Source: a virus
Lineage: Duplodnaviria > Heunggongvirae > Uroviricota > Caudoviricetes
Strand: one strand, 5' to 3'
IMG/VR virus record: IMGVR_UViG_2563366941_000005
DNA: 34,670 nucleotides
How positions within the stretch are numbered: the stretch's first letter is position 1; every line of letters starts with the position of its first letter. The notes under the pieces were generated by a model. The model saw only the letters and a list, made by a program, of their open reading frames with translations, had not been told where the DNA came from and did no database searches. This document shows, piece after piece, positions 2,115 to 15,309 of the stretch. The translations under genes were made by a program, and so were the position numbers.

Positions 2115-3062
2115 TCACCCCTGCGGCGGTTCTGGTAGAGGCATCCAGAACAAGGCGTTCCCTAACCACGATAAAGTGCCGTCGCTCAACTCCACGTATT
2201 CCCCTTGCACCTGGCCTGCCATATACTCACCGTGCTTTGAATAAATTAAAATCCAATCATCTTGATCGGGCATTCGCTCACTACAGCTTATCCAACCATC
2301 CGGAGTTACCGGATAGTTGCCAGCCAGTCTACGCAAAACAGCCTTAACCGCCTCAATACGGTCATCATCGCAACTTTCCAGCGTATCTATGCGATCGAGC
2401 ATGATGATGGCGTTATCAATATCAGGATTGCCGGTCCACTCATTACCGCGATTGGATTCGGCAGCCTGGTTGCCGTGTACTGTTTGATTCTCGGCTTTAC
2501 CCAGTCTGTCGTCGCTGCATGAATGCCCTTCCAGCCAGGCCAATGCTTGTCGCATGAAATACGCAATATGTTTGCCGTGGTAATCGTCTTCATCGATGTG
2601 AAAAGCGATACTGCGGATGTATTCAATTGCGTTTTCAATGGCCTCCGGCGTTATCGGCGCTGACATATTTTGATTTTGGAGTGCCAAGACGCGGCTGGCA
2701 TCCTCAACATCTTTAACTGCATCTGCGCAGTAGTTATAGCGATTGCACTCCACTAACTTCTGCTTGAGATTTTCAATTGCTTGCGCGACATCAGCCTGTA
2801 TTACCGGCACAGGCGGAGCGGCGTACAAAGCAATCAAACTGCCAATTGTTCGCTCTTTCGCATCATCCAGACATGGGTAGGCCGGGGTAGATACAATTGC
2901 ATTATCTCTAAGGTCGTCAGCCATTACCCATGCCACCGGCTCTGCTTCCAGCGAGGCTAACGCTATTTCATAAGCCCGGCGCTCAATATTGTCTCTCACG
3001 TCCAGGCTGCCTATGCGCTCTTTGATTTCTTTAATCAGTTCTTTGTCGGTAAAAGTGCTCAT
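2115..3062 (-). CDS. Phage protein with C-terminal DUF551-like domain
   Basis: ORF ending WMPLPEPPQG (typical DUF551 terminus); start moved to ATG at 3062 with AAGGAG SD 6 nt upstream; N-terminus paralogous to the next gene. Confidence 0.75.
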   Translation of the reverse strand: MSTFTDKELIKEIKERIGSLDVRDNIERRAYEIALASLEAEPVAWVMADDLRDNAIVSTPAYPCLDDAKERTIGSLIALYAAPPVPVIQADVAQAIENLKQKLVECNRYNYCADAVKDVEDASRVLALQNQNMSAPITPEAIENAIEYIRSIAFHIDEDDYHGKHIAYFMRQALAWLEGHSCSDDRLGKAENQTVHGNQAAESNRGNEWTGNPDIDNAIIMLDRIDTLESCDDDRIEAVKAVLRRLAGNYPVTPDGWISCSERMPDQDDWILIYSKHGEYMAGQVQGEYVELSDGTLSWLGNALFWMPLPEPPQG

Positions 3063-3063
3063 A

Positions 3064-3513
3064 TCAATCTCCTTTGGTACCAATGTTTACAGCCTGGCAA
3101 GCCTCTTTGAGCACCCAGTCAACAGCGTCTTTCCATGCTCCGGTTTCGACTGGCGGATTTTCACGCTTAACCTGTTCATAGAAGCGCACTGCTTTAATCA
3201 ATCCTTCTGGTGTCAGTGGCACAGGTGGAGCGGTGAATAACGCCTGAATTTCATAGTTCGGCCTGTCGTTGCAATCCTCTTTTGTCGGTACATATTTCCA
3301 GTCACCAACCCACTGCTCCCCCTGAGAGTCCGTAACGCCTTTTTTCACATAGCGATATCGCCACGCTATCGGCTCTGCTTCCAGCGATGCCTGTGCGATA
3401 CGAAACACATTGGCAAGCAGGCTGTCTGAGGATTGGTTATCGTGCGCTGGGTCGCTCAGGAAGCCATTGATGAATGATTTAATCTTCGAGCTTTCTCTGG
3501 TAATAGTGGTCAT
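3064..3513 (-). CDS. Hypothetical phage protein, N-terminal paralog of the DUF551 protein
   Basis: 149-aa ORF sharing ASLEAEP[IV]AW and APPVP motifs with 2115..3062; AAGGAG SD; stop overlaps the next SD. Confidence 0.7.
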   Translation of the reverse strand: MTTITRESSKIKSFINGFLSDPAHDNQSSDSLLANVFRIAQASLEAEPIAWRYRYVKKGVTDSQGEQWVGDWKYVPTKEDCNDRPNYEIQALFTAPPVPLTPEGLIKAVRFYEQVKRENPPVETGAWKDAVDWVLKEACQAVNIGTKGD

Positions 3514-3514
3514 A

Positions 3515-3540
3515 TCACTCTCCTTTGATGCGAATGCCAG
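3515..3540. repeat. Gene-junction 26-mer TCACTCTCCTTTGATGCGAATGCCAG (copy 1)
   Basis: Exact copy of 4009-4034; encodes the C-terminal GIRIKGE plus stop of the upstream gene and the SD of the next. Confidence 0.9.
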
Positions 3541-4006
3541 TGGTACTCATTCTCCTGATTTCCCAGAGCACACGAGGAACACCACCGTTTCCGACCGGAT
3601 CGCGTTTACTCCGCAGGGCGACGCTTGATTCCGCCCAGCTTTTTCTTGGAGGAAGCTCTTTCACACGAACAAAACCAGCTGCGCGGAGAGATGCTCCTGA
3701 TTCATCTGCCTGGGTGTACGTAATACAACGTTGATAACCCATAGCCTTTGCTGCCCGCCAGACAGCACCATAAAGCGCGCTGTTAGCGTTGCGTTCTCCT
3801 GTGGTACATGTGCGATTTACTTCAAGCGTTAATCCATCGTCCAAATGTCGTGCAACAGGTCTACCGGCTGTCGCCACACCTATCAATTCTCCGGCATCAT
3901 TTCTCAGACCAATGCTGAATTTATGCCCCACCGGGGGTTTATTGTGTCGGTGATGTCTGGATATAAACGCCTTCGCAACACGAAGAGTAACCGGTGAAAT
4001 TTGCAT
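3515..4006 (-). CDS. Hypothetical early-left protein (163 aa), possible acetyltransferase-like fold
   Basis: ATG at 4006 with AAAGGAGAG SD; ends GIRIKGE inside the conserved junction 26-mer; the fold suggestion is a weak pattern impression only. Confidence 0.6.
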   Translation of the reverse strand: MQISPVTLRVAKAFISRHHRHNKPPVGHKFSIGLRNDAGELIGVATAGRPVARHLDDGLTLEVNRTCTTGERNANSALYGAVWRAAKAMGYQRCITYTQADESGASLRAAGFVRVKELPPRKSWAESSVALRSKRDPVGNGGVPRVLWEIRRMSTTGIRIKGE

Positions 4007-4008
4007 TC

Positions 4009-4034
4009 TCACTCTCCTTTGATGCGAATGCCAG
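4009..4034. repeat. Gene-junction 26-mer TCACTCTCCTTTGATGCGAATGCCAG (copy 2)
   Basis: Exact copy of 3515-3540 at the Ea22-like gene terminus. Confidence 0.9.
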
Positions 4035-4734
4035 GGGCGCGTGGCACATTAACTTCCACGATGCGCACTGTTGGTTTGTACATCTCAATCGCTGTCAGCC
4101 AGTCAGCTCCTGTCATGCGCTTTTCCACATCGCCATTAGTCCACTGAACCGGTACACCAATAGCCTTCATCGCGATTTCTATTTCCCCGGCGATGGCGCT
4201 TTTTCCGCAACCAGTAAAACCAGAAACAACGACAAGAACTTCGCCTTTGGCTGGTTTTATTTCCCGTGCTTCCAGTTCTGCAATGCGCTTCTCTGCGGCT
4301 TCCAGCTTCTCGCGCATATCGTCAACGTACTCGACCAGAGATCCGCCAGCAGGAATTTCGCATTCCTCGACCAGTTGGAAGTAGATATCAGCTGCGGCCC
4401 GTGTGTTGCTATGCCTAGCGTCGCCCATCTCACCTTCACGAAGAGCATCGCGTTCGGCGGTAAGATTGGCTATTTTGCTGTCTTTGCCTTCCAGCTCAAC
4501 GCGCAGCCTCCCAACCGTAAGCGCAATATCCTCGTTCTCCTGGTCGCGGCGTTTGATGTATTGCTGGTTTCTTTCCCGTTCATCCAACAATACCAGCGCG
4601 ATATCTGGCGAAAAGTGCTTCATAAAATCGTTAAGCGCATTAATTCGCTGATCGAAAGGCATTACAGGTGCTTCACCAGCAATTTTTGTTTTTTCAGCGA
4701 TTTCACGAAGCTTTTGATAATCAATCTTGCTCAC
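4009..4734 (-). CDS. Ea22-like early-left protein (coiled-coil rich)
   Basis: Start reassigned to GTG at 4734 with AAGGAGG SD 6 nt upstream (GTGA overlap with upstream stop); charged coiled-coil composition; position in the ead/Ea region; ends GIRIKGE. Confidence 0.6.
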   Translation of the reverse strand: MSKIDYQKLREIAEKTKIAGEAPVMPFDQRINALNDFMKHFSPDIALVLLDERERNQQYIKRRDQENEDIALTVGRLRVELEGKDSKIANLTAERDALREGEMGDARHSNTRAAADIYFQLVEECEIPAGGSLVEYVDDMREKLEAAEKRIAELEAREIKPAKGEVLVVVSGFTGCGKSAIAGEIEIAMKAIGVPVQWTNGDVEKRMTGADWLTAIEMYKPTVRIVEVNVPRAPGIRIKGE

Positions 4735-5081
4735 TGGTTGCCTCCTTTGCGAAGCTGTTCCGCCCATTCTTCTAGGGATTTCTCCGCATATTCACCGGAC
4801 AGGCCATCAATCGGGTGTGGTTCATTAGCCAACTCTTCTTTCGCTGACAGAATCATGCGTGTAACGTCGAAAACTTCACGTAAAGACTTATTGATAAATC
4901 CGTGATTGAAAGCCGCAGCAAGACGGCTTGCGGTATAGTTAATACCCTCGTTGCGAGCCTCAGCACGTACTTCATCGAATTTACGCACCAGATACTCAGC
5001 ATTTGTTTCATTCACTTTCAGATCTCGTGGTACACATTTCCCGCGAAGAAACCCTTCCATTTCGAAAACATTCATGCGCAT
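4731..5081 (-). CDS. Hypothetical phage protein (116 aa)
   Basis: ORF translationally coupled to both neighbours; GGAG SD. Confidence 0.5.
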   Translation of the reverse strand: MRMNVFEMEGFLRGKCVPRDLKVNETNAEYLVRKFDEVRAEARNEGINYTASRLAAAFNHGFINKSLREVFDVTRMILSAKEELANEPHPIDGLSGEYAEKSLEEWAEQLRKGGNQ

Positions 5082-5608
5082 TTGCGTAACTCCGATAACT
5101 CGTTAAAACGTTCCATAAACATCCCGTAGGCATGGCCTGGCGACAGTGGAATCACTTTGAACATCTCTGTTGCCGGGATACCTTCCAGTACAGGCCAGAA
5201 AGAGCTATCATCAAGCCCGAGATCGCGACGTTCGGTTGCCAGCATAATGAGATCGGCATATTTCACTGGCGTGCTCATAACAGGAGGTAACCCGTATTTC
5301 TCACGGATTACGGCGTCTATTTTTTCTTCCATCCGTTTATAGTCAGGAAGAAGGCGTTTCAGTGGAGCTGGGATGTCCTGGCAATACGCTTCTGTTGCAT
5401 CATGCATTAACGCTTCAAAAGCAAATTCCTGCGGTACCAGCTGGCTGCAAAGCACCGCATGTTGGGCGACGCTGTAGAAGTGTGAAAGATGTCCTGCAAA
5501 GCGACAGATATTTGAAAGGGAAACCGCGATATCGTTAATCACGATGTCGTCTTTATTTATCTTGTCATAATAAAAATGCTTCCCGGAAAAAGTTTTAATA
5601 AATGACAT
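5072..5608 (-). CDS. HD-domain phosphohydrolase (YfdR-like 5-prime-deoxynucleotidase family)
   Basis: H..(28 aa)..HD motif (AQHAVL ... LMHDATEAY); start moved to ATG at 5608 with GGAGAA SD. Confidence 0.8.
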   Translation of the reverse strand: MSFIKTFSGKHFYYDKINKDDIVINDIAVSLSNICRFAGHLSHFYSVAQHAVLCSQLVPQEFAFEALMHDATEAYCQDIPAPLKRLLPDYKRMEEKIDAVIREKYGLPPVMSTPVKYADLIMLATERRDLGLDDSSFWPVLEGIPATEMFKVIPLSPGHAYGMFMERFNELSELRKCA

Positions 5609-5735
5609 TTTGTTCTCCACGTATATGCGCTGCACCGCGCTGAATTTTGGTTAAAGAAAACCCTCGCCATCAGGCGATTATTGAGTCAATTATGTTTCCA
5701 TAAATGCCCCCGCAGGGGCATTTGCAGTAAGGAAA

Positions 5736-6560
5736 TCAGGCGGTAAAAGTACCAATAAAGGTTTCTACTTTGCTGTCTTTGAATTTCTCAACAAGCAGAT
5801 CACGAAATTCGTTAGCCATTTCTTCCTGCACTGCTTCCAGCTGAATAATGCGCAGAACCAGTACAGGACGATCGCCAGTGATAATGCTGAGGCGTAATTT
5901 AAACGGACGTTCTTGCAGCCCTTCAAACGGAACGCATTTAAATTCAAATGCCACTGGCATAATGTCTTTGGTCTTCGCTTCGACAGATTCCATCAGGGAG
6001 CGTTTGCCGCTGAAGTCATTATCTTCAAAATCAGCGGTCTGGTTTGCTTCAATCGTGATTTTACGGACTGCCGCAGCCGCTTTTGTTGCCTGAATGGCGT
6101 CACCATTAGCATCAAAGCCCACAAGGTAGTCGGCCCAGTCTTCAATCCATTCTGCCAGTGACTTCTGGGAGTTACGCTCGCCGTTAACAGACAACAGGGC
6201 AGAGAACGGTGCTGTCTTTTTCAGTTTGAGAGTGGCGGTGTTATCTGCGTGACCTGGTTCATCAATAGTACCCAGGTTAAGCACACTGACGGCACGCATA
6301 TTATCAGCATCGATAAAGCAGCGGGTGCCTTCATCTGCAAGATCTTTAGAATAACGGGTAAAATCATCGATGCTGGCAGTGGAAAGCGCGCCACGGAAAC
6401 GGAAGCGATTTAAATTAAATTTTTCCAGATCATGAATGCGGAAATTCTCAGGCAATGCCACAGCATCGGCACCAATCTTACTGATAATTTCATTAACACC
6501 CTGAGCAGAAATAAGGGCATGGATTTGATTAATTGCGGTTGCGTCTAAGTTCTGAGACAT
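5736..6560 (-). CDS. DUF2303 / YfdQ-like phage protein
   Basis: 274-aa ORF, same length and position as the YfdQ family next to the HD gene; GAGGA SD. Confidence 0.6.
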
Positions 6561-6625
6561 AATAAGTCCTCACTATATAAAGATATTCAGTGATGAGATA
6601 AATAATCAGTTAATTAAGAACGATA

Positions 6626-6988
6626 TTAATGACCTGCTGCGCGTAGTTTTCCGTCAGGTTCACCGGCAAGAGTCAGTAATTGTCCCTGGTCTTCCTGCAG
6701 AATAGTCAGGCGACCACCGCGATTGACATACATCGGCGTTTCGGTGGTGTCTTCTTCGGAAATTTTCCCGCGGTTAGTCGGGCGAACATATGAGAGTTTG
6801 TGTTTGATTTTCACACGGTTCTCATCAAATGGTTCGATTTCCAGGTTGAGTGAGACCTTACCTTTGGTTTTCGTGTTCATCACACCGGAAGCGACTTCAC
6901 TGAGAACTGCGCCGATTTTGGTTTCAAATACGCCGCCGTCCAGCTCCCCGATAAATGCCTGCACATCAGTACTGCGTTCGCTAGCCAT
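6626..6988 (-). CDS. YfdP-like small phage protein (about 120 aa)
   Basis: Start reassigned to the internal ATG at 6988 (MASERSTDVQ) with GAGGAG SD; the upstream part of the tracked ORF is compositionally non-protein-like. Confidence 0.5.
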   Translation of the reverse strand: MASERSTDVQAFIGELDGGVFETKIGAVLSEVASGVMNTKTKGKVSLNLEIEPFDENRVKIKHKLSYVRPTNRGKISEEDTTETPMYVNRGGRLTILQEDQGQLLTLAGEPDGKLRAAGH

Positions 6989-7133
6989 TTTGCTGCTCCT
7001 CATCATATCGACCCTGCAAGGTCGGTTAGTTTCTCCACAAAACAGAGAAGAACACCTGCGGTGGCAGCCGCCCGGATGGATTGGGTTATGAGCCCGTCGT
7101 CCGGTGATGCTCTTCTCTGTTTTGTAAAAAGAG

Positions 7134-7170
7134 CGGTACCAGCCGGAAGTAAGTGTACAAACTGGTACCG
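7134..7170 (-). terminator. Candidate leader hairpin / intrinsic terminator in the early-left leader
   Basis: 9-bp inverted repeat CGGTACCAG / CTGGTACCG with a 19-nt loop; on the minus strand it is followed by CTCTTTTTAC. Confidence 0.3.
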
Positions 7171-7658
7171 CCAAAGCAGTGGCTGTTGTGGTGCCGGTGC
7201 TGATCTCCGGCTTGCGGTTATTTCAGACTCTCACGGGCGTTTAATTGCCCCGCCGAACAGCTCTTTTCCGCAATAGCTGCAATGTCTTTCGCGCATCAGC
7301 CTGCGCATTCACCACAACGCTGAGAGCATTGCCGGTGTCCGAATCGAACGGACCTTTTCCCTGCCCAACCCTCCCATCTGAATGGGACTGTCTGGAATTG
7401 AACCAGCACTTATGCCTTGCTCGTCAATGCTCTCATCGTTGCGTCCTGGTCTCTTCCCAGGCGTCAAACCGAATCGCCACGCTGGTTAGGCGTCTTATCA
7501 GCATCATCATTGACTTGCACATTCCGGCTACCTGGTTTGTTTGCCCGAGCAAGGAGTGGATTGTCCCCTTTAACGTCCCCAGACCGCTAACGACGCATGT
7601 GCCATACGCCGTGTTACAACCAAATTTTGTTTAATCTTGCCTGTGGCATGTTTCTTTT

Positions 7659-7692
7659 AGATACATTATGTATCTCAAGGGTACATTGTCAA
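7659..7692 (-). promoter_or_regulatory. Candidate pL promoter with overlapping OL operator
   Basis: Minus strand -35 TTGACA (7692-7687), 16-bp spacer, -10 CATAAT (7670-7665); perfect 17-bp palindrome AGATACATTATGTATCT (7659-7675) and operator-like ATGTATC-N5-GGTACAT (7668-7686) overlap it. Confidence 0.55.
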
Positions 7693-7730: not shown

Positions 7731-8405
7731 TTAGGCCTTTATTTTGTATCTTCTTGGTTTTCCTGAGAAAATTACTGTACCAATTATAGAGCAATTACCG
7801 TTAATCTTAATGTAAGGCTCAGGCCAGTTTGGGTTTAATGCTTTGAGATAACGCTGTGTTCCATCTTCTATCAATCGCTTGAAGGTGGTTTCGCCTGTAT
7901 CGTGCATCAATGCAATAACGTCGTCACCGTGGCAGGCAGGGACTTCGGGATCAACAAAAATCATGTCTCCCGGGCGGTACTCATCAATCATTGAATCACC
8001 AATCACCCGCAAGATATAAGTCATTTCGCCACAGGGTACAGGGCAGGGATAAGTTTCTGCTGTGCTCAAATCAACCTCAGAATAGCCAACTTCTTTCCAT
8101 GCTCCGGCCTGTACCCATGATATGACAGGGACTAACGTTATTTGTTTGTTAGTAATTGAAACATCAGGTTTTTTTGTGATGTTTGTTGTCTGGTGTTCTT
8201 GATCAAGCCATCCGACAGGCAGGTCGAAACATTTTTCGATGTGCCGTGCCATGCTGTCACCGATATTTTTAGTAGCACCATCTCCCATAAACCTGCTGGT
8301 CTGGGTTGGCTCGCGATCAATCATGGTGGCAAAGGAAGAATTCCCGCCAACACCATCTCTCAGTTTTCTGGCGTTAGACCGCCGGATGTCATGGACTGTT
8401 TTCAT
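7731..8405 (-). CDS. cI: CI-like prophage repressor (N-terminal HTH, C-terminal S24 LexA-like peptidase domain)
   Basis: 224-aa ORF; C-terminal VIGDSM...GD..FVD...K signature of S24 autopeptidase; divergent from the cro-like gene; no SD upstream, consistent with a leaderless transcript. Confidence 0.85.
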   Translation of the reverse strand: MKTVHDIRRSNARKLRDGVGGNSSFATMIDREPTQTSRFMGDGATKNIGDSMARHIEKCFDLPVGWLDQEHQTTNITKKPDVSITNKQITLVPVISWVQAGAWKEVGYSEVDLSTAETYPCPVPCGEMTYILRVIGDSMIDEYRPGDMIFVDPEVPACHGDDVIALMHDTGETTFKRLIEDGTQRYLKALNPNWPEPYIKINGNCSIIGTVIFSGKPRRYKIKA

Positions 8406-10439: not shown

Positions 10440-10660
10440 TCCGGAATATTTTCAAACGGTTTACCAATCATACTTTCCGTTGTCCTCGTCCGGGTCAGTG
10501 GTACACCACGCCTGCAGGGCATGTTCTACGTGTTAGCCTGGTTGACCGTGAATGTCAGAAGGTGATTTGTGAACCGCTGGGCCGTAATTACCGCATCAGT
10601 ATGCCGCTTATAGCCTTTTGCTCCGGAAAAAACATGAAGCATCTCGGAGGTGCAGCATGA
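10436..10660 (+). CDS. Small hypothetical protein (74 aa, Cys-containing)
   Basis: ATGA overlaps with both neighbours, suggesting translational coupling. Confidence 0.4.
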   Translation: MIRNIFKRFTNHTFRCPRPGQWYTTPAGHVLRVSLVDRECQKVICEPLGRNYRISMPLIAFCSGKNMKHLGGAA

Positions 10661-11475
10661 GTATGGAGCTGATGGTTAAAGCGATGAAAATTCGAGTGGG
10701 TAATCCATTGCGAAAACTGGTTCTGATCAAGCTGGCTGATAATGCCAGCGATCAGGGTGAGTGCTGGCCCAGCTACCAGCATATTGCTGACCAGTGCGAG
10801 ATTAGCAAACGTTCTGTGATGAATCATATTGCGGCCCTTTGTGAGTCCGGGCTGGTAAAAAAAGTCACCCGGAAAGGTGAAAAAGGTAACTCAAGTAATA
10901 TCTATCTCCTTCATCTTGATGGTGCAGGAGATTCACTAGGGGGTAGTGCAAATAATTCACTATCTGGTGCAGCAAATTCACCAGGTAGTGCAGGAGTTGC
11001 ACCAGGGGGTGGTGCAGGAGATTCACCCAGAACCAGTCACTCTTTTGAACCAGTCAAAGAACCAGTCAATGAACCAATAGCTGTTGGTGCATCTGCTGAT
11101 GAGTCTGTGCGAGTTCGTTCAAACCGACCGGAATACTCTCCGGAGTTTGAGCAGGCATGGCTGGCATACCCCAAACGTGCTGGTGGCAATTCAAAATCTG
11201 CAGCCTTCAAAGCCTGGAAAGCCCGTTTGAATGAGGGGGTAAAACCCGAAACCATGCTGGAAGGTGTGAAACGCTACGCGGGCTGGGTATCTGCGATGGG
11301 TAACAGCGGCACACAATTTGTGAAACAGGCTGTCACGTTCTTTGGTCCGGATCGTCATTTCGAAGAATCCTGGGAAGTTCCTGCGGTATCTGCAGCCAGA
11401 CGCGAGGACCCGTACTTCAAAGCCAGTTACGACAACGTGGACTACAGCCAGATCCCGGCAGGATTCAGGGGGTGA
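10657..11475 (+). CDS. Putative replication initiation protein (N-terminal winged HTH, Gly/Ser/Ala linker, YdaU/DUF1376-like C-terminus)
   Basis: ATG at 10657 with GGAGGTG SD; N-terminal HTH LRKLVLIKLADNASDQGECWPSYQHIADQCEISKRSVMNHIAALCESGLV; C-terminal EFEQAWLAYPKRAGGNSKSAAFKAWKARL. Confidence 0.65.
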   Translation: MSMELMVKAMKIRVGNPLRKLVLIKLADNASDQGECWPSYQHIADQCEISKRSVMNHIAALCESGLVKKVTRKGEKGNSSNIYLLHLDGAGDSLGGSANNSLSGAANSPGSAGVAPGGGAGDSPRTSHSFEPVKEPVNEPIAVGASADESVRVRSNRPEYSPEFEQAWLAYPKRAGGNSKSAAFKAWKARLNEGVKPETMLEGVKRYAGWVSAMGNSGTQFVKQAVTFFGPDRHFEESWEVPAVSAARREDPYFKASYDNVDYSQIPAGFRG

Positions 11476-11477
11476 TC

Positions 11478-11966
11478 ATGAGTCTTTTGAATGAAGTTCA
11501 GAAATTCATTGAAGCCCATCCGGGGTGTACTTCCGGAGACATTGCGGATGCTTTTGCAGGTTACTCACGGCAGCGCGTTCTGCAGTCAGCAAGCAAGTTA
11601 CGTCAGAGTGGGCGTGTGGCTCACCGTTGTGAAGGAGATACACGCAGACATTTCCCGCGCCTGACTGAGAGAGCACAGGAGCCGGAACCACAACCAGTTC
11701 GTGAAACCAGACCTGTGCGCAATTTCTGTGTCGGCACTAACGACCCGCAGGTGATTTTGTGCCTGACTCGCCAGGCGGAAGAACTGGAGTCCAGGGGCTT
11801 ATTCCGTCGAGCTGCAACGGTGTGGATGGAGGCATTCCGTGAAAGCCACTCCCAGCCAGAACGAAACAATTTTCTGGCGCATCGTGAGCGGTGCTTACGG
11901 AAAAGCAGCAAGCGCGCTGCATCGGGTGAAGAGTGGTATCTGTCAGGGAATTACGTGGGGGCTTAA
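11478..11966 (+). CDS. Winged-helix protein with PerC/Pch-like C-terminal motif
   Basis: C-terminal QAEELESRGLFRRAATVWMEAF ... ERNNFLAHRERCL resembles the PerC family signature; family assignment is from memory. Confidence 0.45.
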   Translation: MSLLNEVQKFIEAHPGCTSGDIADAFAGYSRQRVLQSASKLRQSGRVAHRCEGDTRRHFPRLTERAQEPEPQPVRETRPVRNFCVGTNDPQVILCLTRQAEELESRGLFRRAATVWMEAFRESHSQPERNNFLAHRERCLRKSSKRAASGEEWYLSGNYVGA

Positions 11967-12619
11967 TGAGTAATAAATATTGCCAGGCGCTGGTGGAGCT
12001 GCGGAACAAACCAGCCCATGAACTGAAGGAAGTGGGCGATCAGTGGCGCACGCCGGACAACATTTTCTGGGGAATTAACACCCTGTTTGGCCCGTTTGTT
12101 CTGGATCTGTTCACTGATGGTGATAACGCCAAATGTGCCGCTTATTACACTGCGGAAGACAACGCGCTGGCGCATGACTGGTCTGAACGTCTTGCGGAGC
12201 TTAAAGGTGCTGCCTTTGGTAATCCCCCGTACAGCCGCGCCAGTCAGCATGAGGGGCAATACATCACCGGCATGCGTTACATCATGAAACATGCCAGTGC
12301 CATGCGTGATAAAGGCGGGCGCTATGTTTTCCTGATCAAAGCTGCCACCAGCGAAGTGTGGTGGCCGGAAGATGCAGATCATATTGCTTTTATTCGCGGG
12401 CGTATTGGTTTTGAACTGCCTGCCTGGTTTATCCCGAAAGACGAAAAGCAGGTGCCAACAGGTGCTTTCTTCGCTGGTGCTATTGCTGTTTTCGACAAGA
12501 CCTGGAAGGGACCGGCAATCAGCTACATAGGGCGCGATGAACTTGAGGCATGTGGTGAGGCGTTTCTGGCGCAGGTTCGCCAGCAGGCGGAAAAACTGGT
12601 CAGGGAGATGGCGGCATGA
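11966..12619 (+). CDS. Phage DNA N6-adenine methyltransferase (Dam-like)
   Basis: NPPY catalytic motif (FGNPPYS); start at ATG 11966 (TAATG overlap with upstream stop). Confidence 0.8.
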   Translation: MSNKYCQALVELRNKPAHELKEVGDQWRTPDNIFWGINTLFGPFVLDLFTDGDNAKCAAYYTAEDNALAHDWSERLAELKGAAFGNPPYSRASQHEGQYITGMRYIMKHASAMRDKGGRYVFLIKAATSEVWWPEDADHIAFIRGRIGFELPAWFIPKDEKQVPTGAFFAGAIAVFDKTWKGPAISYIGRDELEACGEAFLAQVRQQAEKLVREMAA

Positions 12620-12942
12620 CGACGTTAACTCAATGCCAGCAGCAGGTGCTGGATATGCTGATTTCTTATCAGAAAGAACGTGGCTTCCCGCCAACCAATC
12701 AGGAGGTGGCAACCATGCTGGGATACCGTTCGGTGAATGCAGCGGTGGAGCATCTTCGCGCACTGGAGAAAAAAGGCGTCATCACGATAAAGCGTGGCGT
12801 GGCCCGGGGGATAACGCTTCATACTGCGATGAAGGACGACGACAGCGAGGCGGTCGGGATTATCCGCGCACTGCTTGCCGGTGAGGAAAACGCAAGGCTG
12901 CGTGCAACCCACTGGTTACATGAGAGGGGCCTGAAAGTATGA
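12616..12942 (+). CDS. LexA-like protein with DNA-binding domain only (no S24 peptidase domain)
   Basis: 108 aa; alignable by eye with the E. coli LexA N-terminal winged helix (QQVLDML...GFPPTNQEVATMLGYRSVNAAVEHLRALEKKGVITI..ARGITL); ATGA-coupled to both neighbours. Confidence 0.7.
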   Translation: MTTLTQCQQQVLDMLISYQKERGFPPTNQEVATMLGYRSVNAAVEHLRALEKKGVITIKRGVARGITLHTAMKDDDSEAVGIIRALLAGEENARLRATHWLHERGLKV

Positions 12943-13334
12943 AGCTAATACTGCCTTTTCCGCCCAGCGTGAACACGTACTGGCGACACCCCAACAAAGG
13001 GGCGTTTGCTGGTAAGAGCCTGATAAGCGCGGCGGGGCGAAAATTCCAGAGCGCGGCGTGTGCAGCAATAGTTGAGCAGTTACGTCGTCTGCCGAAACCA
13101 ACGTCGGCACCTGCTTCAGTGGAGATCGTGTTGTTTCCTCCGGATAACCGGATCCGCGATCTGGACAACTATAACAAGGCGCTGTTTGACGCCCTGACCC
13201 ACGCGGGTGTGTGGGAAGACGACAGTCAGGTGAAAAGAATGCTGGTGGAGTGGGGACCGGTTATCCCGGAGGGGAAGGTCGAGATCACTATCAGTAAGTA
13301 CGAAAAAGCGAGTTGCAAATTAGCAACTCGGTAA
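12939..13334 (+). CDS. rusA: RusA-family Holliday junction resolvase
   Basis: 131 aa; PFPPSVNTYWR ... DLDNYNKALFDALT ... DDSQV matches the RusA signature. Confidence 0.85.
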   Translation: MKLILPFPPSVNTYWRHPNKGAFAGKSLISAAGRKFQSAACAAIVEQLRRLPKPTSAPASVEIVLFPPDNRIRDLDNYNKALFDALTHAGVWEDDSQVKRMLVEWGPVIPEGKVEITISKYEKASCKLATR

Positions 13335-14313: not shown

Positions 14314-15309
14314 GTGACTGTGAGAGCACTACTGACCCCTGAAATTGCCCCGCGTATGGGGATCGTATTGTTCAGGCCAGGTTCAGAGCTGATGCCCCTG
14401 TTTATGCAGGGGCGTGTCCTGCTGGAGCCTGAGCCGGAGCGTTATTCATCTTTCGCCAGTGGTGCCGTTCCGGCGGCATCACAACCGCTGGCGGATGATC
14501 CTGCCGTTCGGGCCGTGTTCCGCCATGAGGCAGTGATCCGTCGTGCTGGTGGCGTGGAATGTCTTGAAAGCTGGTTACTTCGTGAAAAAGGCTGCCAGTG
14601 GCCTCATTCCGGATGGCACAGCGAGAACATGACCACAATGCGACACGCTCCGGGTGCAATCCGTCTGTGCTGGCACTGCGATAACCAGCTGCGCGATCAG
14701 TTCACGGAACGGCTGGAATCAATGGCAACGGATAACTGTGCCCGCTGGGTGTTGTCTGTTGTGCGTCGGGATCTCGGTTTTGATGACAGTCACGTTGTGA
14801 CAATGCCGGAACTGTGCTGGTGGCTGATTCGTAATGACCTGGCGGATGCCTTACCGGAAAGTGCAGCCCGTAAGGCACTGAGATTACCGAAGCCTGTTGT
14901 GCCGTCTGTCACCCGGGAAAGTGACCTTGTGCCTTCGGTTCCTGCCACCAGCATCATCCAGGATAAAGCGAAAAAGGTGCTGGCGCTGAAAGTGGATCCG
15001 GAGTCGCCGGAGTCTTTTATGTTACGCCCCAAACGTCGCCGCTGGGTTAATGAAAAGTACACGCGCTGGGTTAAGACGCAGCCGTGTGCATGTTGTGGAA
15101 AGCCTGCTGATGATCCCCACCACCTGATAGGCCACGGTCAGGGGGGAATGGGTACAAAAGCGCATGACCTCTTCGTGCTGCCTTTGTGCAGAAAGCATCA
15201 CGACGAGCTGCATGCGGATACCGTGGCATTTGAAGAGAAGTATGGCTCCCAACTGGAGCTGATATTTCGTTTTATCGATCGTGCGCTGGCAATAGGCGTG
15301 CTGGCCTGA
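14314..15309 (+). CDS. DUF968-like phage protein with C-terminal HNH-like zinc-binding motif
   Basis: 331-aa ORF; C-terminal CACCGK...HHLIGHGQGG...CRKHHDELH; start codon uncertain (GTG 14314 or 14320). Confidence 0.6.
   Translation: MTVRALLTPEIAPRMGIVLFRPGSELMPLFMQGRVLLEPEPERYSSFASGAVPAASQPLADDPAVRAVFRHEAVIRRAGGVECLESWLLREKGCQWPHSGWHSENMTTMRHAPGAIRLCWHCDNQLRDQFTERLESMATDNCARWVLSVVRRDLGFDDSHVVTMPELCWWLIRNDLADALPESAARKALRLPKPVVPSVTRESDLVPSVPATSIIQDKAKKVLALKVDPESPESFMLRPKRRRWVNEKYTRWVKTQPCACCGKPADDPHHLIGHGQGGMGTKAHDLFVLPLCRKHHDELHADTVAFEEKYGSQLELIFRFIDRALAIGVLA

Follow-up and report, generated by a model that had tools for sequence, protein, structure and literature searches.

The yfdP-yfdQ-yfdR cassette of a lambdoid phage genome: a conserved gene pair joined to an optional HD-domain gene

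The CPS-53 (KpLE1) prophage of Escherichia coli K-12 carries three consecutive genes, yfdP, yfdQ and yfdR (b2359-b2361), and the same cassette is found in the early-left operons of lambdoid phages, as SfV orf29-31, mEp460 gp33-35, ST64B sb35-37 and LLS gp37-39. A cluster listed as ‘yfbR, yfdQ, yfdP’ has been described as fairly common in lambdoid early-left operons, where it is present both without a Rec module (LLS, ST64B) and with one (ArgO145); the same study assigns yfdQ and yfdP no function (Genome Research 2025, PMC12315714). Here we analyze the copy of this cassette that lies in the IMG/VR record IMGVR_UViG_2563366941_000005, a stretch of 34,670 nucleotides from a virus of the Caudoviricetes, which we call the window. 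Most of what we report concerns the way in which the cassette is put together: YfdP and YfdQ form the true conserved unit, with a 3' hairpin of its own; the HD-domain gene yfdR is an independent add-on; and the spacer that precedes yfdR is structured.

Three co-oriented open reading frames (ORFs) on the minus strand fill positions 5072-6988, exactly as had been proposed from the sequence alone in what we shall refer to as the original prediction. The upstream member of the P-Q pair, yfdP (6626-6988, ATG at 6988), encodes 120 amino acids and belongs to phrog_204 (E=1.2e-49), with PF27127 listed on homologues that are 99% identical to it. A spacer of 65 nucleotides (6561-6625), which contains the GAGGA Shine-Dalgarno sequence of yfdQ and has the same length as in K-12, separates it from yfdQ (5736-6560), whose product is a DUF2303 protein of 274 amino acids with RFRG, PGH and QK..AEW.EDW motifs. 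Last comes yfdR (5072-5608, stop at 5072), which encodes an HD-domain phosphohydrolase of 178 amino acids. The longest ORF for this gene has GTG as its start codon, at 5635; with the ATG at 5608 and a GGAG Shine-Dalgarno sequence at 5618-5615, the product has the 178 residues annotated in K-12.

The products are 99.2% (YfdP), 98.9% (YfdQ) and 97.8% (YfdR) identical to the CPS-53 proteins of K-12, YfdR sharing 174 of its 178 residues and differing at positions 135, 151, 156 and 170; the intergenic gaps of 65 nucleotides (P-Q) and 127 nucleotides (Q-R) are equal to those of K-12. At the level of DNA, positions 4975-7007 align with CPS-53 as a single blastn segment of 2033 bp at 97.4% identity. 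This segment is a mosaic exchange block common to the window and CPS-53, and it runs on the minus strand from 19 nucleotides 5' of the yfdP ATG to approximately codon 36 of a yfdS-like ORF (4731-5081). The left junction of the block thus falls inside that ORF, near 4975, and many phage matches stop at query position 274, which is window position 4973. Matches to the block occur in 251 phage records; mEp460, SfV, SfIV and phages of the Stx2a and Stx2c types are among them. Given the near-identity to K-12 and the number of phage records, the match is far beyond chance, and what had been described as a resemblance to the yfd genes is in fact a near-identical copy of them. The three genes are therefore an already known and annotated cassette, and the finding is to this extent largely ordinary: it adds one more copy of a catalogued prophage cassette, whose HD member has a tentative published link to DnaA. 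The description of the genes as tightly linked was somewhat overstated, for although they are adjacent, they are separated by gaps of 65 and 127 nucleotides, the second of which holds three hairpins.

The window copy resembles that of CPS-53 in gene order, in protein lengths (120, 274 and 178 amino acids) and in spacers, and differs from it in its flanks. In the window, the genome around the block is lambdoid and apparently complete, a cI-like repressor gene and a pL-like promoter lie upstream, and the genes downstream of the block match YfdS and YfdT over their first 42 residues only. The cassettes of SfV, mEp460, ST64B and LLS share the position in the early-left operon, and are likewise flanked by the immunity region on one side and the ead/xis/int end on the other; in these phages, however, the neighboring accessory genes are reshuffled, and the ST64B-type copies are only about 57-69% identical.

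In order to determine which of the three genes belong together, we collected YfdQ loci from annotated phage records, from one genome per GTDB species, and from viral contigs seeded with distant homologues. A first scan of viral contigs had returned only loci that were 99-100% identical, and so uninformative for diversity; the wider sampling replaced it. The ORFs of each locus were searched with iterated profiles of YfdP, YfdQ and YfdR, and clustering of YfdQ at 90% identity gave 57 lineages. YfdP lies directly 5' of YfdQ, on the same strand and at a gap of 3-67 nucleotides, in 55 of the 56 assessable lineages; in the one lineage without it, YfdQ is no more than a truncated fragment. Even where YfdQ identity has fallen to 29-47%, in phages of Vibrio, Pseudomonas, Hahella and Xanthomonas, the two genes stay together; ORF38 of phage CP2, for example, is 39% identical to YfdP (E=8e-18). 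The HD gene behaves differently. Of 55 lineages, 25 have it directly 3' of the pair and 31 have it at a distance of 4 kb or less, and the lineages that bear it are all Enterobacterales prophages, except for one Pseudomonas phage with the HD gene 2 kb away. The HD family itself occurs in 333 phage records, many of them Bacillus, Caulobacter, Rhizobium and Stenotrophomonas phages, and the Bacillus, Caulobacter, Rhizobium and other HD groups are unseen among the 184 records that match YfdQ. In the 24 lineages with all three genes, protein identities are correlated more strongly between YfdP and YfdQ (r=0.77) than between YfdQ and YfdR (0.48) or YfdP and YfdR (0.45).

Because the P-Q pair is obligate, whereas the HD gene is optional and is independently found elsewhere, we conclude that the module is a composite of an obligate P-Q unit and a facultative, independently mobile HD gene. 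The picture of an enzyme with two partners, on which the original prediction was built, does not hold, and its expectation that the genes co-occur across related phages is borne out for YfdP and YfdQ but not for the HD gene. This change of framing could matter, since YfdP-YfdQ comprises some 1,800 clusters at 50% identity and has no recognizable fold.

The neighborhood of the pair in lineages without the HD gene suggests a role in DNA replication or recombination, and not in nucleotide signaling. A gene for a single-stranded DNA-binding protein (SSB) lies directly 3' of P-Q in Proteus, Hahella and Vibrio; in Vibrio podophages an exonuclease gene of the DEDD or YqaJ type lies directly 5'. The order in Stx phage PA2 is RecT-exo-SSB-P-Q, and in CP2 it is P-Q-(DUF1351-like)-Erf-exo-endonuclease-SSB. 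Since, in the absence of the HD gene, genes for exonucleases, SSB and Erf or RecT often flank the pair, it may act in DNA replication or recombination; its travelling with genes that handle single-stranded DNA is, however, suggestive only.

The spacer between yfdQ and yfdR (5609-5735, minus strand, 127 nucleotides) contains three hairpins, which show compensatory changes across Enterobacterales lineages. Hairpin 1 (5702-5723) has the form AAATGCCCC-TGCG-GGGGCATTT, lies 12 nucleotides 3' of the yfdQ stop codon, and has no U-run in the window. Among 17 aligned loci, columns 18 and 39 pair as AU in eight, UA in seven and GC in one, and columns 20 and 37 as GC in 12, CG in two and GU in three. A stable GC-rich hairpin (-14 to -27 kcal/mol), folding within about 15 nucleotides 3' of the yfdQ stop, is found in 20 of 23 further lineages, and it is there whether or not the HD gene comes next. 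(Lineages with such a hairpin in the first 60 nucleotides include L085, L086, L088, L002, L146, L172 and L181.) In Vibrio phage VvAW1 the hairpin is followed by a U-run, as in an intrinsic terminator. The P-Q unit ends, on its 3' side, at hairpin 1 and, because a hairpin follows yfdQ whatever gene is next, the pair looks like a self-contained unit of transcription or message stability.

Hairpin 2 (5653-5677, minus strand, with its stem at 5677-5664) reads TCGCC-TGAT-GGCGA followed by GGGTTTTCTTT, and is terminator-like; its columns 69 and 82 pair as CG in 12, UA in three and UG in two of the 17 aligned sequences. Hairpin 3 (5627-5640, minus strand) has the hexaloop GUGCAG and lies about 10 nucleotides 5' of the yfdR Shine-Dalgarno sequence. 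The last five bases of its loop, TGCAG, are invariant, and its stem, which is weaker in the window and in K-12, shows compensatory changes in five of six pairs among 15 sequences. The covariation score for this hairpin is 0.687, as compared with 0.18 for shuffled alignments (none of 500 reaches the observed value) and at most 0.26 for slid controls. Lineages with short spacers retain hairpin 1 only. We also considered hairpin 3 as a nut or boxB-like site, in view of its 5-bp stem and a boxA-like string, TTCTTTAACCAA; we rejected this reading because the boxA-like string is not conserved elsewhere and no second copy of the hairpin is present near pL or pR. An Rfam scan of the spacer found no family above threshold, the best match being STnc100 at 22 bits against a threshold of 47. 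It is plausible that the hairpins end or stabilize the P-Q message and set the translation of yfdR, and the structured spacer provides a small extra lead on how expression of the HD gene is set.

We turn now to YfdR itself, which by its residues appears to be an HD phosphohydrolase with an intact catalytic site. The metal ligands of the HD superfamily, H...HD...D, are present as H50, H69-D70 and D119, where the first H and the last D were identified through alignment with PDB entry 2gz4 and through their invariance. Across 25 YfdR homologues, down to 41% identity, residues R36, F37, H50, H69, D70, D78 and D119 never vary, and E73 is conserved in at least 90%; the metal-binding residues whose loss would have spoken against an enzyme are accordingly all retained. 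Assignment to a family is less straightforward. YfdR matches phrog_318 strongly (E=4e-111), but it scores 24.2 bits against PF12917 (YfbR-like), just under the cut-off of 25.9, falls just under the cut-off for HD_3 as well, and reaches only 19.9 bits against NCBIfam NF003009, whose cut-off is 122. The DUF2303 assignment of YfdQ, on the other hand, is full-length and secure: 310.8 bits against PF10065 (E=9e-93, cut-off 26.6), over profile positions 2-269 of 269.

The best-known protein to which YfdR may be compared is YfbR, an HD-domain 5'-deoxynucleotidase (PDB 2paq, 2par and 2pau). The two share the HD fold and an hHDxxExxxxDxPxPxK motif: a profile aligns the YfdR segment LhHDaxEayxqDiPaPlK to AMYHDASEVLTGDLPTPVK of YfbR, and the entries for the YfbR E72A mutant (2par, 2pau) align at the same position. 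H69, D70, E73 and D78 of YfdR line up with H68, D69, E72 and D77 of YfbR, where E72 is the catalytic Glu and D77 the Asp that comes after it. The relation is nevertheless very distant (profile E=0.027 over about 40 residues), and a single-sequence phmmer search of PDB sequences with YfdR does not match YfbR; the closest solved relative is Atu1052 (PDB 2gz4, profile E=1.5e-22), which has no assigned function. Membership of the 5'-deoxynucleotidase family, as originally proposed, is thus weak, being supported by the alignment of E73 and D78 and opposed by the sub-threshold scores against PF12917 and NF003009. YfdR also differs from YfbR in that its affinity for nucleotides is far lower, according to Zimmerman (2008) as cited in PMC4776307, where it is called a structural homologue of YfbR; its nucleoside-monophosphatase activity is reportedly weak.

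The claim that the module has no established role is still fair for YfdP and YfdQ, but it is outdated for YfdR. The genes yfdQ-yfdR-yfdS-yfdT were isolated as a multicopy suppressor of the over-initiation of hda-185 (Noguchi and Katayama, PMC4776307). Suppression needs yfdQ, yfdR and either yfdS or yfdT, with yfdP dispensable; purified K-12 YfdR binds domain I of DnaA, in a manner that depends on DnaA Phe46, and competes moderately with DiaA and DnaB; and extracts oversupplied with YfdQRST inhibit oriC replication in vitro (PMC4776307). With its binding to the Phe46 surface and the inhibition of oriC initiation on oversupply, K-12 YfdR resembles in its action other binders of DnaA domain I, namely DiaA, SirA of Bacillus subtilis, and Dps, and also lambda P, a phage inhibitor of host initiation. 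It has no kinship with any of these in sequence or in fold, being an HD hydrolase, and its effect, unlike theirs, needs YfdQ together with YfdS or YfdT, and over-expression.

On this basis we favor, with a probability of roughly 0.45, the reading that the cassette dampens initiation on the host chromosome and adjusts DNA and nucleotide metabolism for the benefit of the phage, early after induction or infection. The block is the cassette of lambdoid phages of the SfV/mEp460/CPS-53 type, and it forms a single mosaic segment within a leftward early operon that has no canonical Rec module. The first of its two units, YfdP-YfdQ, whose members are obligately adjacent and diverge together, would act on intermediates of replication or recombination, or else on host proteins by which these are handled. 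The second, YfdR, is a facultative add-on, mostly of Enterobacterales prophages; its K-12 counterpart binds the Phe46 surface of DnaA used by DiaA and DnaB and, when oversupplied along with YfdQ and YfdS or YfdT, blocks initiation at oriC. Such a cassette would suit a phage that brings an O-like/DnaD-like initiator as its only replication protein. This is the case here: the rightward replication region of the window encodes one such initiator but neither a helicase nor a loader, so that this phage is probably wholly dependent on helicase loading by the host, which is consistent with host takeover. The identity of the genes, the conservation of residues, the co-occurrence, and the published binding of K-12 YfdR to DnaA are established elements of this reading; what we infer is a role in phage growth, a physical complex of YfdP with YfdQ, and a DNA-related activity of that pair.

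Several observations weigh against the reading we favor. The effects on DnaA were seen on over-expression only, deletion of yfdQRST has no initiation phenotype, pulldowns showed no strong binding of YfdQ to YfdR or to DnaA, and the authors concede a possible artefact (PMC4776307). The suppression further required YfdS or YfdT, of which the window shares only the first 42 residues. With regard to the pair, P-Q coexists with complete Rec modules in PA2 and CP2, and its nearness to SSB, exonuclease and annealing-protein genes may reflect no more than location in the early region. Neither YfdP nor YfdQ has sequence or fold similarity to DNA-binding or recombination proteins in the libraries searched, among them the Red-beta/RecT/Erf annealing proteins, lambda Exo/YqaJ and Gam, and AlphaFold2 models of both are of only moderate confidence. 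Finally, the wide occurrence of the HD family in phages of Gram-positive and alphaproteobacterial hosts suggests that the primary selected function of YfdR is enzymatic, rather than the binding of DnaA.

This last point leads to the main rival explanation, in which YfdR is merely a nucleotide-pool HD hydrolase of the 5'-(deoxy)nucleotidase type, its binding to DnaA is artefactual, and P-Q is an unrelated neighbor. The invariance of the catalytic residues fits this explanation, as do the 333 phage records from very different hosts in which the HD family occurs without P-Q, the independent assortment of HD and P-Q, the PHROG and RefSeq labels (dNMP phosphatase or 5'-deoxynucleotidase, dNMP standing for deoxynucleoside monophosphate), and the concession made by the authors of the DnaA study. 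It is harder to reconcile with the reportedly low nucleotide affinities of YfdR, with the fact that deletion of yfdR did not raise the yield of cytidine monophosphate in an engineered strain (PMC10870394), or with a DnaA interaction that is specific, Phe46-dependent and reproduced with purified protein (PMC4776307). Moreover, many Enterobacterales lineages have the HD gene after P-Q, with the conserved structured spacer in between. We therefore regard it as a possible but rather unlikely account of the cassette.

The original prediction had raised a different role for the enzyme, in which the HD protein, aided by YfdP and YfdQ, degrades or sequesters the signals of CBASS, Pycsar or Thoeris, or otherwise counters defense. 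The cassette does lie in an accessory early region, where anti-defense genes often sit, it does contain an intact nucleotide hydrolase, and a high-copy YfdQ assembly could in principle serve as a sponge. But no tool result or paper links the three genes to defense (an absence of evidence only, as the PADLOC models describe defense rather than anti-defense), and in Pfam and PHROGs YfdR matches only HD families, YfdQ matches DUF2303, and YfdP falls into a family that has no name. The HD gene is dispensable to P-Q in most lineages, and the known substrates of its clade are monophosphates. To our knowledge, the anti-CBASS and anti-Pycsar nucleases and sponges described so far (the Acb1, Apyc1, Tad and Acb2 types) have folds other than HD. 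We consider a role in counter-defense very improbable.

What remains to be gained is mostly the function of the widespread P-Q pair. YfdQ is acidic (isoelectric point 4.9), and in 65 sequences at 32-53% identity its motif positions R56 (of RFRG), P102-G103-H104, Q132, E140-D141, R166 and R223 are conserved in at least 90%, with T61 invariant; the motif residues are present in the window protein. DUF2303 comprises 1776 clusters at 50% identity in a global library, and the best 150 of these are all stand-alone proteins of about 265-285 amino acids. Several database proteins (P0011, P0074, P0160, P0244 and P0254) appear as fusions of YfdP with YfdQ (PF27127 with PF10065) or of YfdQ with HD; such entries, which are absent from the top 150 cluster representatives, are most likely artefacts of frameshifts or gene calling. 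Homology between YfdP and YfdQ themselves was ruled out by hhalign, NCBIfam and PADLOC return nothing for either protein, and YfdP, in which residues 70-104 form a conserved segment, has no relative among PDB sequences.

For YfdQ, by contrast, a search of PDB sequences with a deep-alignment profile gives one match and no other, the entry 9o7m, entitled ‘YfdQ Protein’, which contains 36 chains of one sequence and is the only such entry. The deposited sequence is 98.8% identical to a protein of Xanthomonas phage MET23-P3 and 93.5% identical to ORF37 of CP2, and it matches YfdQ over the full length of DUF2303 (E=1e-44; profile E=2e-89; about 38% identity). In CP2, as in the window, a YfdP homologue precedes YfdQ; the podophage from which the entry comes differs from the window in that genes for Erf, an exonuclease and SSB lie downstream, and in that no HD gene adjoins the pair. 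Full-text literature searches found no paper for 9o7m or its source. A preprint on PhiXacm4-11, a CP2-like podovirus, was considered as the source and set aside, since its deposits are 11BX and 11DM and YfdQ is absent from its text.

The 36 chains of 9o7m suggest that YfdQ forms a large oligomer. A more specific proposal follows, which we rate somewhat below the nucleotide-pool explanation in likelihood: YfdP-YfdQ could be an unrecognized two-protein part of phage replication or recombination modules, in which YfdQ is a megadalton oligomer, whose fold has no match in the PDB libraries searched, with YfdP as the obligate partner. The two proteins would handle single-stranded DNA or DNA ends, or would capture a host protein of replication or recombination. 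This proposal would explain why P-Q in virulent podophages has an exonuclease gene on one side and an SSB gene on the other, why it is present in some lambdoid phages without a Rec module, and why YfdQ is needed for the YfdR-dependent block at oriC. Were the pair indeed a new factor for DNA handling or host takeover, it would close a gap that recurs in the early-left operons of lambdoid phages, and likewise in many Vibrio, Xanthomonas and Pseudomonas phages.

A large assembly might also be carried by the particle. In such a scheme YfdQ, with YfdP, would be virion-associated or injected, and would act as the DNA enters the cell, for example by protecting its ends. Mass spectrometry of purified virions of Burkholderia phage JC1 revealed its DUF2303 protein, gp10 (PMC9144972), and the 36-chain homologue in 9o7m is closest to proteins of Xanthomonas CP2-like podophages. 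Yet the genes lie in early or DNA-metabolism clusters at every locus examined and never in structural modules, a megadalton oligomer could co-purify with virions, and the text on the cryo-electron microscopy of PhiXacm4-11 does not contain YfdQ or DUF2303 and draws its candidates for core proteins from another gene cluster. Of the explanations weighed here we hold this one to be the least probable. As a separate observation, a gene for a CsrA-like RNA-binding regulator lies two genes 5' of YfdP-YfdQ in Vibrio phage VvAW1 (L085:2816-3028), and in JC1 a CsrA homologue and the DUF2303 protein are both reported to be virion-associated (PMC9144972); this may be coincidence, or it may reflect large YfdQ oligomers that co-purify with virions.

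The surroundings of the cassette in the window bear on its place in a leftward early operon. A cI-like repressor gene with a Pfam match to Peptidase_S24 (7731-8405, minus strand) is followed at its 3' side by a terminator-like hairpin (7719-7702) and then by a predicted, near-consensus pL-like promoter, TTGACA-16-CATAAT (7692-7665), found by consensus scan, which would drive the operon. The proposed early-left position is consistent with all of these features and is a reasonable reading, and expression from the pL-like promoter is predicted. Between that promoter and yfdP lies an ORF-poor leader of about 670 nucleotides (6989-7664, minus strand), in which we found no convincing ORF and, with ARAGORN, no tRNA. 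Strings in the leader that resemble a tRNA T-arm were accordingly discarded as tRNA candidates, and the leader matches no Rfam family. The window leader also has no C4, isrK or STnc100 matches in an Rfam scan. Relatives of the ST64B type do carry a C4 antisense RNA and an isrK RNA, above the Rfam threshold, beside the immunity region, and their leaders 5' of yfdP give sub-threshold STnc100 matches of 35-37 bits (the match sites are L083:617-805 and L119:134-335, and L083:3227-3345 and L093:3402-3530).

The control of the operon bears upon one further explanation, namely that the cassette mainly benefits the lysogen, as a moron-type element that confers stress tolerance or controls co-resident phages. 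Deletion of yfdQ from K-12 is cited in PMC4776307 as causing mild sensitivity to hydrogen peroxide and methyl methanesulfonate, deletion and complementation of yfdQ alter plaque production by phage SW1 (preprint 10.1101/413146), and the cassette has stayed intact in the decayed CPS-53 prophage. However, because the window genes lie downstream of a repressor-controlled pL-like promoter, the cassette should be silent in the lysogen, and P-Q is also conserved among the DNA-metabolism genes of Vibrio and Xanthomonas podophages that appear to be virulent. A benefit confined chiefly to the lysogen thus strikes us as improbable.

Downstream of yfdR the left operon continues on the minus strand with further mosaic genes. 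The first 42 residues of the YfdS-like ORF (4731-5081) correspond to K-12 YfdS (88%) and give way to an Eae-like C-terminus; an Ead/Ea22-like gene follows (4009-4767), and after it a gene for a protein of 165 amino acids (3515-4012) with matches to NCBIfam XF1762 (E=5e-61), to phrog_1384 and, weakly, to Pfam Mom. Since phrog_1384 is labeled ‘Mom-like DNA modification protein’, the product may be a DNA-modification protein or a protein with an acetyltransferase fold. The ORF at 2115-3083 is again a mosaic, its first 42 residues corresponding to YfdT (83%) and its end to DUF551, a domain found in YfdS. An excisionase-like gene (1395-1649) lies far downstream of yfdR and is followed by an integrase gene (75-1361). 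Library scans of the window proteins found no gene for a single-strand annealing protein, exonuclease or Gam in the left operon. The late genes of the window are lambda-like. The rightward early region, with genes at 10618-11475, 11933-12619, 12939-13334 and 14314-15309 on the plus strand, also contains a 3'-phosphoadenosine-5'-phosphosulfate (PAPS)-reductase-like/DNA-methyltransferase-like gene, a RusA-type resolvase and a large HNH endonuclease.

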